Source: Eledone cirrhosa (lineage: Eukaryota). From it: a stretch of 64,000 nt of DNA. Location: assembly GCA_964016885.1 (NCBI GenBank), contig OZ024742.1, forward strand, positions 363,506,001-363,570,000. Reading direction: 5' to 3'. Under the pieces are notes generated by a model that saw only the letters and a list, made by a program, of their open reading frames with translations, made no database searches and was not told where the DNA came from. Position numbers and translations under genes: made by a program. Below are positions 3,377-64,000 of the stretch, piece after piece (position 1 is the stretch's first letter; the number at the start of each line of letters is the position of its first letter).

Positions 3377-3425
3377 ATATTCTGCTCCTTTACTGTCGAG
3401 CGCTGTATATTATAACTGAAAAATA

Positions 3426-3740
3426 ATGGAATTCTTTAAGATCTCTTCTTCTCTAAAGGACATACCTATACCTAGGAATAAAGACTTTATAAAACAATTA
3501 ATAGAAAAATCAGACTAATTTATAAGACGAATCCGGTGGCGTGCTTTCCACTTCGATAATTCTGATGTAAAAGAGAATATTTCAAATCTTGATTGAATCT
3601 TCAAATCTAAAAAAAAACCCACCTTCCAACAAACTACTAATGGATTTGTAGAATGAAATCATCTCTATCATTCAAAGCATTAAATTTAAAAAAAGCAACT
3701 TCATAGGCCAGGATTACCTAAGAAATCTCAAAAATAATAT
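3426..3740 (+). pseudogene. N-terminal fragment of a Penelope-like element ORF
   Basis: Translates as SLKDIPIPRNKDFIKQLIEKSD*FIRRIRWRAFHF, then FKSKK.PP and IKFK, the typical PLE N-terminal region. It has stops and frameshifts. Confidence 0.6.
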
Positions 3741-15366: not shown

Positions 15367-15800
15367 TGCAGAGGTTATATTTAATTTGTTGGGATTCAAC
15401 AAGCTTAAACATTTTTATAACTGATATAAAGCACTCAACAAGTTAGTGGAGTAATAAATGGAAACTATATTTATAAAACCATAATTATTTTATTATATAT
15501 ATTTCAAGAGCGACCAAGGTAAATTATGGTGCGCTTTCATCAAATAAAATACAGATTTGTTTCATAAATAAATTTTGACATACCCGGAAATAAGACAACC
15601 TCGACGGTTGAAGACCATCCAGCGAATTTCAACCATTGAGGTTGTCTTTTTTCCCGGTATGTCAATATTTATTTATCAAACAAATCTGTATTTTATCTGA
15701 TGAAAGCGCACCATAATTTACCTTGGTACCCCTGGAAATATATATAATAAAATAATTATGGTTTTATAAATATAATTTACATTTATTAATATATTGTATA
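15367..15800. mobile_element. Fold-back pair of family A-related pLTRs with an HHR on each strand
   Basis: Arms are about 15453-15612 and 15633-15787, with a tail at 15367-15452. The plus HHR is at 15689-15754 and the minus HHR at about 15486-15551. Confidence 0.85.
15689..15754 (+). ncRNA. Minimal type I hammerhead ribozyme
   Basis: Helix I tattttat/ataaaata (8 bp), intact CTGATGA and GAAA, palindromic TATATA helix III, cleavage triplet AUA. Helix II is partly mismatched. Confidence 0.7.
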
Positions 15801-23184: not shown

Positions 23185-23376
23185 TATATATATATATATA
23201 TATAAAACGATCGTTAAATAATGAACTTTTTTTGTTTAATATAAGGAACTGTTTCATTGTTTTATTCATTATTTTTTTAACATTTTATATATATATATAT
23301 ATAGATATATTTATATATATGTATATATTTATACACACACACATATATGTATATATATATATATGTATATATTTAT

Positions 23377-53789: not shown

Positions 53790-54742
53790 TTTAGCGGCTT
53801 CCAGCATACATTAGTAATCTTCTTTGGCTTCTTAATATTCTTTACTAGATATTTTGTCTTAATCTCATTCATTCTCAGCCCCACACTCATCGACACAGTC
53901 TCCACCTCCTGCATCAAATACTCTGTCTCCTTCACTGTGTTTGTCACCAAAACTATGTCGTCGGCAAATTCAGCATCCGATATCTTTTTTTCCTTAACTC
54001 TCCTGCTCTGAGCCGGTGCTACAGTAAAGGCAGAGTCCTGGTGTTTCTCCAGCGCAAGGCGCATACAATAGTCCACTACGATGATAAAAAGGTAGGGTGC
54101 CAATGTATCTCCCTGTAGCACGCCAGCCAGTAGCTCAAAGAACTCAGTCATCCCGTCAGGTGTAATGACTTGGGGTTTGGTGTTGGTATAGAGTAGTGAT
54201 ATCAGGTCCACTAGCTTCTTGGGGATTCTATAAGCCTGTAAGATCGGTGTGGAAGTCGGATCTTCGTGAAAGACCTGAAGATCCGCCTCTTCGTTGCTGT
54301 AGTGGAGTCTGTGCTGCTGTACTCTGACCAACAAACAGAGAACTGGATACTGAACTGGAAACTGAGACTTAGACACTGACCAAGAAACTCACTCAGATGG
54401 TGGATGGGTGCTACACGAGAATGCTGAGGATGGCTCTGAACATTAATCAGTATACACTGAGGATGAAGAACTCAGAGCTGTACGAAGCCTCACAAAAGTC
54501 AGCTCAAAAGTGACAGGGAGGAGACAGAGGTTAGCTGAACATGCTCACCGACATCCAGAGTTGACACTGCGCTCAGTGCTCCTGTGGGAGCCCCTGCATG
54601 GACACACTGGAAGAGGAAGACCGAAGTTAACATATGTTGATGCCCTAAGGACAGATACTGGTCTGTTGGAGACGCAGGACATAGCAGCAACAATGAGGGA
54701 CAGAGACTGCTGGAGAGAACTCGTTCATGGATCTCGGTAATG
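53790..54742. mobile_element. RTE-like LINE with inverted 5' part (RT on minus 53790-54243; 3' end on plus 54240-54742)
   Basis: Minus strand: GVLQGDTLAPYLFII...FADD. Plus strand: LKIRLFVAVVESVLLY...[13 protein letters not shown]...DRDCW. Confidence 0.8.
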
Positions 54743-54770
54743 TTACCCGCACTACATATATATATACATG

Positions 54771-57992
<3,222 letters not shown>

Positions 57993-58024
57993 TATATATA
58001 TATACATATATATGTATATATATA

Positions 58025-58115
<91 letters not shown>

Positions 58116-58117
<2 letters not shown>

Positions 58118-58467
58118 CTTTACTGTAGCACCGGCTCAGAGTAGGTGAGTTAAGGCGAAAAAGGTATCAGATGCTGAATTTGCCGACGACATAGTTTTGG
58201 TGACAAATACAGTGACGGAGGCAGAGGATTTGATGCGGGAGGTTGAGACTGTGTCGATGAGTGTGGGGGTGAGAACGAATGAGACTAAAACAAAATATCT
58301 GGTAGAGAATGTTGAGAAGCCAGAGCGGATCACTAATGTAGGCTGGAAGCCGCTAGAATTGGTTGAGGACGTCCTGTATTTGGGAGTAAAGATTGGGAAT
58401 ACAGAAGATGATGTGGTTGAGAGGAAGAGCAAAGCCTGGGCGGCGTGCCACAGCTTGAGATCGGTGT
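58116..58467 (+). mobile_element. RTE-like LINE RT fragment, same family as 53790-54742
   Basis: FADDIVLV...KTKY...YLG...[12 protein letters not shown]. Confidence 0.8.
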
Positions 58468-58483
58468 ATGTATATATGTATGC

Positions 58484-58576
<93 letters not shown>

Positions 58577-58624
58577 CATACATATATACATACACCGATC
58601 TCAAGCCGTATGTATATATGTATG

Positions 58625-59400
<776 letters not shown>

Positions 59401-59643
59401 TCTGTTCCCCCCTTTCTCTATGTATGTATATATTCATACATCATATAGTTATATAGGATTTAGATATATGTGTCAAACTTAACACACCTCCAGCGATCTA
59501 ATCTGACGCATTTTTACAGGTAATCCCAACGACCTAATCCACTCTGTATATACACATATATATTTATACGTACACACACATATACATACATATATATATA
59601 CATACGTACAAACACCACATACACACACACATATATAATATAT

Positions 59644-59745
<102 letters not shown>

Positions 59746-59756
59746 ATATATACATG

Positions 59757-59813
<57 letters not shown>

Positions 59814-60174
59814 ATATGTGTGTGTGTCTGCGTGTATACATATATGAATATATATGAGTATATATATGTGTATTTATCAATAAAAACTGCTGAATATGCG
59901 TGTCTGTTACACATTGATTTATGCATTATTTATGTAGAATCACACGCAATCACGAACACATACAGATACATATCTATTTTCAAACCCGTTCATACAAACA
60001 CACATATGCCTATATATATATATATATATTGTTATTATTTTTAAAGAATATATATACTTTTTAAAGAATTCCCTTTTCTTTAAACCCATCAAACAATGAC
60101 CTCCACCCATCCCAATCACCACCCTCTCCTACAACCAGAAAAGATATAAACACCACCATATTACTTGGACAGTC

Positions 60175-60225
60175 AGCTTCCTGGTGATTTCTCCCGAATG
60201 AAACAGTTCTAGTCCTGTAGAAGCT
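60175..60225 (+). ncRNA. Type I hammerhead motif with full helix III and A6G core change
   Basis: agcttc-CTGGTGA-t-ttc-tccc-gaa-t-GAAA-cag-ttctagtc-ctg-TA-gaagct. Confidence 0.65.
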
Positions 60226-60717
60226 TCTCTCTATTAAATATTTATACTCTGCTTTGTATTGAGTACGTTACTTACTGTGGTTACCCCCGATTGAACCCGG
60301 GATAAACTTATATATATATATACATACATGATATATTGGATTACCCAACGTGTCTATTTAGTAAATAAATTGAGAAAACATTCAATACATGTATAATAAA
60401 AGAGAAACGTTTCATTTGACTTTTGGTTCATATGAGATGTCATAAGGCATTTTAGATATAAAAGGTGAGCTTTCAGACCTCGTGTGTAGATATACGATAT
60501 ACACCATATATATATATACATATATATATATACATATATACATATATATCACGATAGATTAACGGAGCCATAGACTCTCGCCATTCCCTGTAAATAATGT
60601 GCTCAAAGGAGAGGAAATCCTGAGCTCTTTAAAATACAATATGTTGAAAAGGTAACACACTAGAGAGAGATACAGTGCGCTATCAATAAAACAGGGAAAA
60701 ACCACCAGTGTATGGAT

Positions 60718-60847
<130 letters not shown>

Positions 60848-60950
60848 AATACATATATATTGTTGTTACATCGGTGTTACAAAAGAAAAGGGAATCAGTG
60901 CTCAATCGGGAGCAGAGCTAATAAATTATTTATGTTCATACACGGAACAG

Positions 60951-61039
60951 AAGATATACCTGAGGTTTCAACGGACAATATTGACCATATATCTAAAATA
61001 TAATAGGGACCAAATTTGTGACGTATTCTTCAGACACTT
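60951..61039 (-). ncRNA. Hammerhead-like motif with extended helix II of about 57 nt
   Basis: CTGAAGA-atacgtcacaaatttggtc...ggtcaatattgtccgtt-GAAA-cctcagg-TA. Helix I is poorly paired. Confidence 0.45.
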
Positions 61040-61060
61040 ATGTGAGATTACACGCACACT

Positions 61061-61116
<56 letters not shown>

Positions 61117-61417
61117 GATACACCCACACTAACACACACATACACACCCATACAGCCACACTCACACACACACATACACACACACCGACACTCACACACA
61201 CATACACACACCCACACCCACACTCACTCCACCACACACACACATATATATATATATATTATTTTTCTAAATGTTTGTGCGTGTGAGAATATGTATATCT
61301 CTATCTATATATATGTATTTATATATATATATTATTAAAGTTAGTCCTTCATCAGTGATCTTCCAACCATCATTGGTATATATATATATTTATATATATA
61401 TATATATAGATATATCT

Positions 61418-61520
<103 letters not shown>

Positions 61521-61676
61521 TAAAGAAAAAAAGATGAAATCGAAAATGCAACTGGAGTCTTATTTTTTTTTTAAATATATATATTTATTTGGTTCCTTTA
61601 CCGGTTTCGCAGTTCTTCTGCTTTTCAAAAGTAGAGTTGAGATGGAGGGTCTGTGGTTTTTCTCACATCTGTATAT

Positions 61677-61761
<85 letters not shown>

Positions 61762-61764
61762 TAG

Positions 61765-62277
61765 ATAAATCTACCAAAATGTACGGTAGTGTCCAATCCG
61801 TATAAAGAACTCAATGTAATCCGAATATCATGAAAAGAGATGTATTCAAAAAATTTTTTTCAGATGAAAAATACAGGAAAACAGAGTCAAGATAAATTAA
61901 TAAAAATAATGAATAAAAACAAAGAAACAGTTCCTTATATTAAAAAATTCATCATTTTACGATCGTTTCTAGGATATATATGTTTGTGTTGGTATGTATA
62001 TCATATAGATCTATGTAAAATGTTTACAAACTATCAGAGGGAATATACATACCTACACATATATATGCTGTCTTCAGAAATAATGAAGACATTATTTCTG
62101 AAGACAGCATATATATGTGTAGGTATGTATATTCCCTCTGATAGTTTGTAAACATTTTACATAGATCTATATGATATACATACCAACACAAACATATATA
62201 TCCTAGAAACGATCGTAAAATGATGAATTTTTTAATATAAGGAACTGTTTCTTTGTGTTTATTCATTACTTTTATTA

Positions 62278-62281
<4 letters not shown>
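61765..62281. mobile_element. Fold-back cassette (arms about 61895-62085 and 62090-62281, 4-nt loop) with long-helix-II HHRs on both strands
   Basis: Near-perfect palindrome with a tail at 61765-61894. Related pieces lie at 62360-62700 and 23204-23285. Confidence 0.85.
62090..62225 (+). ncRNA. Type I hammerhead ribozyme with about 100-nt helix II
   Basis: cattattt-CTGAAGA-[62105-62205 hairpin atatatatgtgtaggtatgtatat...atatacataccaacacaaacatatatat]-GAAA-cgatcg-TA-aaatgatg. Confidence 0.7.
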
Positions 62282-62362
<81 letters not shown>

Positions 62363-62639
62363 GATAAATCTACCAAAAGTTTACGGTAGTGTCCAATCCG
62401 TATGAAGAACTCAATGTAATCCGGATATCATGAAAAGAGAAGATGCATTCAAAAACTATTTTCGGCGAAAACTAAACGGAAAACAGAGTCAAGATAAATT
62501 AATAAAATAATGAATAAACAAAGAAACAGTTCCTTATATTAAAAATTTTTTTTTTTAATATAAGGATCTGTTTCTTTGTTTATTCATTATTTTATTAATT
62601 TATATATATATATATATATATATATTCATTATGTTATTA

Positions 62640-62682
<43 letters not shown>

Positions 62683-62693
62683 TTATTTTATTA

Positions 62694-62727
<34 letters not shown>

Positions 62728-63128
62728 GCATACTATATATAGATGCACACCAAGGCACATACACATACACACATATATATATGAACACAACACACTCATT
62801 CTCAGATGTACAAATGCCTATGGATTAAGAGAGGGTCTCGACGCCGAGACTTCTCAACTCCCAAGTATCGTTAGTTTGATAATTCTCGACCTTTGAACAA
62901 TTGTCAGTCCACGTGCTTCCATCTCTTCCTGTCTGCCCGAATAACCGCTCAAATATTACATCTAGCTGTGTTTATTCTATAGTTAAAGAGAAGAAACATT
63001 GTGCTCTCCTCAATATTTTACGCTGAGTATTCGAACCCAAGTCCTCAGGATTTGTAAGGAAACCTATTAACCATTCAGCTAAGGAACTGATTACGTCCAT
63101 ACAAACACATTATTTCTGCAAAGAGATA

Positions 63129-63317
63129 TAATTGTTTCTACTTTTGGCGCAAGGGCAGCAATTAAACCAGTGTATTACTGGTACTTTATTTTATCGACCC
63201 CGTAAGGATGAAAGGCAAAGTTAACCTCAGCGGGATTTGAACTCAGTCCGTAAAGGGACGTAACTGTGCCGCAAAGCATGGCGTACGACCCTCTACCGAT
63301 ACTGCCAATCCACCGCC
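63129..63317 (-). mobile_element. tRNA-derived SINE
   Basis: Reverse complement of the 5107 family. Confidence 0.9.
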
Positions 63318-63435
63318 CTAGCCAAATACATGTATACACATAATGTATATGTATACATGAAACTCACTTGATACATTCTTACATATATACAGATATGTAT
63401 TTACACAGCAAATGATGATACACACAAACACACCA

Positions 63436-63517
<82 letters not shown>

Positions 63518-63654
63518 ACACACACACGCATACACACACACACACACACACGCACACACACACACAGACACACACACACACATGCCACTATAATCATACA
63601 TACAGATAGTATTTAGCTCGTATGTTTCAACTATGGCTACACAGTGTCATATGT

Positions 63655-63790
63655 AGAGACACAAACACACGCTTACACATGCCTAACCACAGAGACACAA
63701 ACACACGCTTACACATGCCTAACCACAGAGACACAAACACACGCTTACACATGCCTAACCACAGAGACACAAACACACGCTTACACATGC
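63655..63790. repeat. 36-bp minisatellite, about 3.8 perfect units
   Basis: agagacacaaacacacgcttacacatgcctaaccac repeated. Confidence 0.9.
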
Positions 63791-63935
63791 ATAAATGTAT
63801 ACAAAATGAAACAAATATATACACACACAGAAACGCCCAAATATATATATATATATATATTACCCATCTACTACCCTAAGTATTGAGTACTCTGGTGCGT
63901 TATGGTCCACCTGGTTCCTTACCACATTTCCTTCG

Positions 63936-63971
<36 letters not shown>

Positions 63972-64000
63972 TTCTGGCAGGAGTGTGTAGATGTCCAACA

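Follow-up and report, generated by a model that had tools for sequence, protein, structure and literature searches.

The window analyzed here, a 64,000-nucleotide stretch of the Eledone cirrhosa genome (contig OZ024742.1, positions 363,506,001 to 363,570,000, forward strand), contains a near-perfect palindrome of two 194-bp arms (61892-62085 and 62090-62283) that differ at 2 positions and are separated by a 4-nt spacer. The features assigned at this locus, in window coordinates, were as follows.

61762..61891, minus strand: optional 3′ tail of the element, ~130 bp, on the minus arm only, ending in (TA)n
61892..62085, minus strand: minus arm, a stub of the terminal repeat that holds a complete hammerhead (C3 at 62077, helix II at 62070-61970)
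62086..62089, no strand: arm junction AAGA, read from the sequence and compared with junctions in the family
62090..62097, plus strand: 5′ strand of helix I, CATTATTT; the A at 62091 is the putative transcription start
62098..62104, plus strand: hammerhead core C3-A9, CTGAAGA, read from the sequence
62105..62205, plus strand: helix II, 101 nt (C/A flank, 2 bp, C-C mismatch, two long stems, apical motif, loop)
62140..62167, plus strand: apical motif in helix II (3 bp, 4x3 internal loop, stem-loop), a candidate protein site
62206..62217, plus strand: G12-A14, helix III, and A17 (GAAA at 62206-62209; self-complementary ACGATCGT at 62209-62216; A17 of the GUA triplet at 62217, with the predicted cut directly 3′ of it)
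62218..62225, plus strand: 3′ strand of helix I, 8 bp with one G-U
62218..62283, plus strand: 3′ strand of helix I and downstream hairpin; short 3′ end of the element, then (TA)n
62361..62603, no strand: second, separate head-to-head stub of a sister subfamily, 88.6% identical to the first over 193 bp, without the core

The hammerhead parts named in a preliminary description of this DNA (CTGAAGA, GAAA, helix I, helix III, and GUA) were all confirmed in the sequence where they had been placed, as was the mirror copy reported 4 nt upstream on the other strand. The palindrome itself also stood, but the extent given for the duplication was too short, the minus arm continuing for ~130 bp, as the tail, to about 61762. 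This tail matched the continuation of the arm in other copies (87 to 97% identity), and its end is likely the distal one of two reverse transcription start sites; at the window locus, the plus arm has the short 3′ end and the minus arm the long one. (TA)n was found on both flanks of the locus and at most 3′ ends of the family. In the minus-arm hammerhead, the predicted cut lies after 61958. The AAGA junction can be parsed in two ways: either both arms end 7 nt before C3 (position −7) and are separated by a short, templated core copy (GAAGAC) or, unless such an insert is assumed, the arm ends at −8/−9. The 2 mismatches over 194 bp are in keeping with a single event of recent date, and the young insertion proposed earlier was upheld by family matches that were nearly all 98 to 99% identical to the arm. 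RNA read across the locus would fold into a 194-bp duplex and not into a hammerhead, for which reason the window locus is likely an inert by-product stub.

The second stub pair (62361..62603) is centered ~10 nt 3′ of the cut site and could be derived from cleaved RNA; that it is a tandem duplicate of the first palindrome was ruled out by its 87 to 93% identity and its different center. It is followed by short 3′-end fragments between TA runs (62625-62699). A short repeat adjoining the insertion (61515-61670) is palindromic beside a family copy in L031 (about 3400-3650). An older family stub at 23224-23280 follows (TA)n without a gap and starts at AAACGATCGTT, immediately 3′ of helix II. Other hammerhead-like motifs in the window, at 15697 (plus), 55040 (minus), and 14118 (plus), have spacer lengths of 31, 11, and 13 nt; the type with the 31-nt spacer has ATATATAT as its helix III and is part of a second Hydra-like family, whose endonuclease is 42% identical (L031:5622-6272).

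A search of the genome with the arm gave 969 candidates, of which 40 were scored, and 42 near-full-length matches (96 to 100% identical) were listed; 42 of the 45 main-arm matches listed were at least 98% identical. Upstream of family copies, we found an open reading frame (ORF) with RWR, DKT, YRDD, CxCx5C, YIG, CxxC, and CxH motifs. In L035, RWR and DKT are carried by L035:3722-4195, YRDD lies in the reverse transcriptase (RT) frame and YIG in the last frame (a GIY-YIG endonuclease C-terminal to the RT), the CxCx5C linker, CxxC, and CxH motifs read CNCRNKANC, CRLC, and CNH, and a stop codon is located 744 nt before C3. A Pfam search of the three ORF frames yielded no match, and the assignment rests on the motifs and on homologues; the N terminus was similar to that of Hydra-1_Obim when compared by eye only. 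The element is ~3.5 kb long; the copies in L031, L035, and L036 are frameshifted, and no intact ORF was found in the 10 stretches examined. The published account of the Hydra clade gives an RWK-type motif, DKT for DKG, a CxCx5C linker, and CxxC plus CxH around conserved E and N residues, together with a short (<3 kb) single ORF and (TA)n insertion (PMC8557442). The motif set and the insertion into (TA)n identify the element as a Hydra-clade Penelope-like element (PLE), and the window motif is, judged from its sequence, a hammerhead of type I within the element's terminal repeat, the element being a young member of this clade. The type I core (CUGANGA ... GAAA ... NUH) was present in a three-helix junction with covarying helices, and the cleavage triplet was GUA, GUU, or GUC in the copies, all within NUH (as the search pattern required).

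Family 3′ ends were found at two fixed places, ~63 and ~195 to 205 nt past the predicted cut. The long 3′ end continues through ~100 nt into the 5′ untranslated region and ATG in L036, L135, L205, and L217, from which it follows that the predicted mRNA has the terminal repeat at its front as well. A non-LTR retrozyme, described as noncoding tandem head-to-tail hammerhead repeats (10.64898/2026.07.22.740005), was ruled out, as what was found were head-to-head stubs, or the ends of an element that bears an ORF.

The length of helix II across the 3.0-Gb genome was assessed with the exact pattern CTGANGA-spacer-GAAACGATCGTH, binned by spacer length, with the reversed pattern as control. Spacers of 5 to 35 nt gave 122 matches (control, 7), those of 36 to 66 nt gave 108 (control, 14), those of 67 to 97 nt gave 1,415 (control, 4), and those of 98 to 128 nt gave 11,625 (control, 12), counts which are approximate in that the bins mix families and include some accidental anchors. 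Short-arm matches (spacer of ≤66 nt) numbered 230, less than 2% of 13,270. Matches to CTGATGA with a 97-nt spacer and no helix I were rejected as an accidental anchor inside a lineage with a U3-A8 core. Within the family, arms were about 86 to 126 nt long, some subfamilies having a tandem duplication of 10 nt; internal-deletion copies of the arm exist, and much of the stem is AT-repeat-like. A helix II of ~100 nt is the norm of this family, not local decay, and the alternative of a unique decayed insert, raised earlier, failed against a long arm that is fixed in thousands of copies and covaries. The claim that helix II is far longer than that of published PLE hammerheads held, the difference being roughly fourfold: the published minimal-hammerhead descriptor allows a stem II of 3 to 7 bp, a loop of 3 to 10 nt, and one extra base on each side, with a maximum of 26 nt (PMC4209133, Fig. 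S7), and the 101-nt helix II of the window lies outside it; in the 26 Hydra rows of File S2, the A9-G12 spacer was 12 to 26 nt by hand count, and the longest spacer in that file, ~54 nt, belongs to a non-Hydra element marked as deviating (PMC8557442). Length-limited descriptors would indeed miss the form, and an Rfam scan of 54000-64000 (E ≤ 5) returned no hammerhead family, its only hits being microRNA matches below threshold at AT hairpins.

Stability of the fold was assessed next to that of shuffled sequences. The segment 62090-62225, for which folding had been proposed as a check, reached −30.8 kcal/mol (z = −3.17), a stability equaled by 0 of 200 shuffles, its unconstrained minimum-energy structure not being the active fold, and the 101-nt spacer alone was likewise more stable than shuffles (z = −4.7; 0 of 300 as stable). 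The stem had been called microsatellite-like; it is a three-stem arm with conserved internal loops, and helix II is flanked by C and A rather than by a G-C pair, with 2 bp and then a C-C mismatch coming next. Among 13 representatives, 11 folded at z values of −2.1 to −5.9 and 2 no better than shuffles, and the sense strand folded more stably in 10 of the 13.

The suggested search for family copies and test of covariation, when run, gave many copies and joint changes of the basal pairs. For the covariation set, 54 related sequences (97 to 117 nt) were reduced to 29 (<96.5% alike) and aligned by sequence only. The window structure was paired in 94.1% of the cells of this 29-row alignment (slid controls, 22 to 58%). 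Two-sided change was found in 4 of 5 basal helix II pairs, with a covariation score reached by 0 of 500 shuffles; a pair-count measure was weaker (47 of 500 shuffles in the 29-row alignment and 260 of 500 in a second covariation analysis), and covarying cells count sequences and not events, corresponding to only a handful of lineage changes, not 29. Helix I and basal helix II changed in compensating pairs across subfamilies, and a basal C-R-G-C/C-C-Y-A motif kept its sequence while its neighbors diverged. In the apical 3-bp stem with its 4x3 internal loop, both strands were conserved and loop length varied (paired at 100% in all 15 rows of the second alignment); two-sided change was absent there in the alignments, so that the role of this motif as RNA is only presumptive.

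The 3-8 pair was Watson-Crick in both lineages compared, C-G in that of the window and U-A in a sister lineage. In this U3-A8 lineage (L269 to L274, L104, L106, L113, and L120 to L123), which has a 107-nt helix II and on which a CUGANGA search misanchors at an internal CTGATGA, 122 matches were obtained; U3/A8 was present in 99 of the 100 listed and C3/A8 in 1, and helix I showed matched changes. Cleavage depends on the 3-8 pair and is restored by double swaps (PMC11167929), and U3-A8 has been described as a naturally occurring hammerhead variant (PMC4209133). Together, the compensating pairs, the conserved apical loop, and the U3-A8 swap indicate that the active fold is under selection, and the pattern of change in the copies argues for an arm selected as RNA.

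Could the arm be bulk that is merely tolerated, the hammerhead being active and the arm having grown by slippage or duplication, paired only to avoid misfolding the core? The variable arm length, the 10-nt duplication, the AT-repeat-like stem, and the internal-deletion copies noted above are what such growth would leave, and the unrelated arm of ~95 nt, branched, in another family with the same helix III points the same way; however, the apical internal-loop motif and the basal CRGC/CCYA motif are fixed while their neighbors diverge, and short-arm matches are rare (<2% of 13,270). We consider this explanation unlikely, if still worth weighing. In that unrelated family, the base of the ~95-nt branched helix II is G-C or U-U, and TATCGATA lies ~20 nt upstream of the core in several copies (family members, L101, L110, L115, L117, L129, and L168).

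The active fold was 2.9 to 7.5 kcal/mol less stable than competing folds. In RNAalifold, UUUCU was paired with AGAAA, which buried the core, and the downstream hairpin took the 3′ strand of helix I. The C/A flank at the base of helix II was present in 56 of 87 long-arm sequences, and the 10.1-11.1 junction, between the unpaired C/A flank and the C-C mismatch, was A-U, G-U, or G-C; extra N10 and N11 bases are allowed by the published descriptor (PMC4209133). Helix III, ACGATCGT, is the predicted dimer interface, and in a cofold of two copies pairing ran through this 8-mer with a gain of ~9 kcal/mol. The mirror copy was ruled out as an in-cis dimer partner because it is encoded by the opposite strand and because the palindrome, as RNA, has a fold of −294.7 kcal/mol. 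Given the bare palindromic helix III, the atypical helix II junction, and the less stable active fold, easy cleavage is unlikely, and the likeliest reading of these predictions is that cleavage would be weak, dimer dependent, and probably protein assisted, as has been reported for other PLE hammerheads (PMC6765202 and PMC11167929). The hairpin downstream of the cut site (62216-62275), which extends to the short 3′ end, is a competitor of helix I and may be a folding switch or a reverse transcription start signal. In contigs of three runs from one sample, depth was higher over the hammerhead than upstream, a difference not usable as a count.

A 34-nt piece located 3′ of the cut site had 1,675 matches, and we mapped 5′ ends for 97 of the first 100. 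Forty-one ends lay 1 to 30 nt before C3, 18 of them exactly at −7, and the others lay inside the core or helix II (22), further upstream (28), or 3′ of the cut (6). No pile-up was found at the cut site, where 1 of the 97 copies ended, and 99 of 100 listed copies ran through it (the TATATA anchor of this search also matched the element itself). It is rather doubtful that the motif is a relic that no longer cuts and serves only dimerization or protein loading. The scarcity of copies starting at the cut site, the more stable competing folds, and the dispensability of cleavage in vitro for another PLE (PMC11167929) would suit a relic, but the U3-A8 swap keeps a pair that is important in the catalytic conformation, and GUA, GUU, and GUC all obey NUH, though this was demanded by the search pattern.

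Head-to-head palindromes are routine in this genome, with 1,121 having cores 0 to 30 nt apart and 185 being centered around the cut. Among the listed cut-centered palindromes, ~10 arms could end at +1, most of these being blurred by A/T microhomology. In 50 listed junctions, 6 of 100 arms reached −8 or beyond (counted by eye), and genome-wide the templated C at −8 was absent in 3,105 copies and kept in 6,529. In 45 (TA)n-flanked copies with a nearby G, the G directly preceded A(−7) in 30 (by eye), preceded −6, −5, or −4 in none, and preceded −3 in 3. Overall, G was found at −8 in 22 of the first 100 non-C copies, no excess over genome composition, and the extra-G signal comes from the (TA)n subset and from junction snippets that are repeated (L275 and L288 hold a G-ended piece repeated several times). 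Eleven of the 18 exact −7 ends adjoin one other repeat that shares ATTAT; these are uncertain by up to 5 nt and may be nonindependent. The ATTAT stubs (11 of 97; L189, L197, L224, L227, L230, L235, L240, L241, L252, L254, and L260) could mark a hot spot for insertion or could stem from template jumping off the element's 5′ end onto the RNA of that repeat. Position −7 is the A of TCATT, which resembles the animal initiator consensus, and the A at 62091 would correspond to +1 of this initiator-like sequence in intact copies. TCACT and ACATT have been called initiator-like (PMC3846280), and the Penelope promoter is internal, in the terminal repeat (PMC2377424); an extra G marks capped full-length L1 insertions (PMC11702581). 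From the copy ends we infer that −7 is the start of a capped RNA. A second NUH cleavage at −8 (AUC) as the source of the −7 ends was rejected, no helix I partner being present by inspection.

We consider it probable that stub pairs arise by twin priming on uncut, capped RNA, that the hammerhead cuts weakly as a dimer, and that the arm is a selected protein handle, all three taken together. Both nicked target strands would prime reverse transcription on the uncut, capped element RNA; both cDNAs would run off the RNA 5′ end, 7 nt before the hammerhead core, and would be joined at their ends into a head-to-head stub pair, likely in one event. The predicted hammerhead would cut weakly, as a dimer and probably aided by the protein of the element, and the long helix II would be a selected RNA arm, likely a protein-binding handle. 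Purified PLE protein was reported to cleave and extend both strands, to start at two internal sites, and to use mainly uncut RNA, and its hammerhead needs protein (PMC11167929). Given the copy-end data and a PLE protein that extends both strands on uncut RNA, two run-off cDNAs are the simplest account of the stub pairs.

We regard as improbable, when all its parts are taken jointly, a scheme in which the hammerhead forms the 5′ leader of the mRNA, 7 nt after the cap, with helix II as a protein dock. As parts of that scheme, the RT-endonuclease would bind the apical internal loop; the RNAs would dimerize via the palindromic helix III, like a retroviral dimer signal, and the nicked strands would copy both; and the capped leader of 127 nt would later be removed by protein-gated cleavage, a step that would toggle the RNA between its roles as template and as message. 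Self-priming on an antisense template, or fold-back of a single cDNA, has been proposed for head-to-head Penelope junctions (PMC3846280) and would suit the many junctions that overlap at a 2-nt palindrome; it is quite improbable as the origin of the palindrome, since arms end at different fixed 3′ sites (tail versus short end) at the window locus and in L248, L251, and L267, and the two arms share one sense-strand end point, where an extra G is frequent. Conservation as DNA, with the arm holding downstream elements of an internal promoter and pairing being secondary, is very unlikely: the arm does span +15 to +115 of the putative start, the Penelope promoter is internal (PMC2377424), and AGACG at +28 to +32 in one subfamily (L161, L163, and L176) partly fits the downstream promoter element RGACGTGY, but two-sided changes and G-U substitutions keep sense-strand pairing, the conserved boxes lie 49 to 54 nt from the start across lineages, at a distance that is not fixed, and the +28 AGACG is absent from the subfamily of the window and not kept in other subfamilies.

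In common with the Hydra-clade PLEs described in PMC8557442, the family has the protein motifs, (TA)n targets, a type I hammerhead near the 3′ end, a short palindromic helix III, and extra bases flanking stem II, and an inverted 5′-truncated copy and a hammerhead on both strands of Penelope-13_HM are reported there as well. It differs from the elements covered in that account in the spacer (101 nt versus 12 to 26 nt in 26 Hydra rows), in the length of the element (~3.5 kb versus <3 kb), in the tail (~130 bp versus 30 to 40 bp), and in having over ten thousand copies. Minimal PLE hammerheads (PMC4209133) share the type I form, an unstable palindromic helix III that needs dimers, an extra base after A9, the U3-A8 core variant, and opposite-strand pairs 100 to 700 bp apart; in contrast, their helix II is 6 to 8 bp (descriptor maximum, 26 nt), and G10.1-C11.1 is conserved there, whereas the window copy has A-U inside a C/A flank. 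The PAc Poseidon element of the green anole (PMC11167929) resembles the present family in its two fixed reverse transcription starts, which give an optional tail, in the extension of both strands, and in the use of uncut RNA as template. It belongs to another clade, no long arm is described for it, and its hammerhead overlaps the start codon, whereas here the ATG lies ~300 nt past the cut site. Hammerheads in the 5′ untranslated regions of fungal RNA viruses (PMC13725137) are also type I and upstream of an ORF, where cleavage would leave an uncapped mRNA; their "long helix II," however, is 6 bp, their helix III is stable, and they do not belong to a retroelement.

Hammerheads in Hydra elements, inverted stubs, tails, and the U3-A8 core are already in print. 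Neither the ~100-nt arm nor the cap-centered junctions were found in the literature on extended helix II, Penelope hammerhead variants, and cephalopods (subscription papers being thinly covered). The arm shows that helix II is able to carry a large conserved domain. The copy ends point to a single start nucleotide and cut site, and they offer a handle on how Penelope elements make head-to-head insertions and on which RNA strand is copied. The long-arm form makes up ~98% of the genome matches with this helix III and yet is invisible to the published survey pattern, so that such ribozymes have probably been greatly undercounted in animals.
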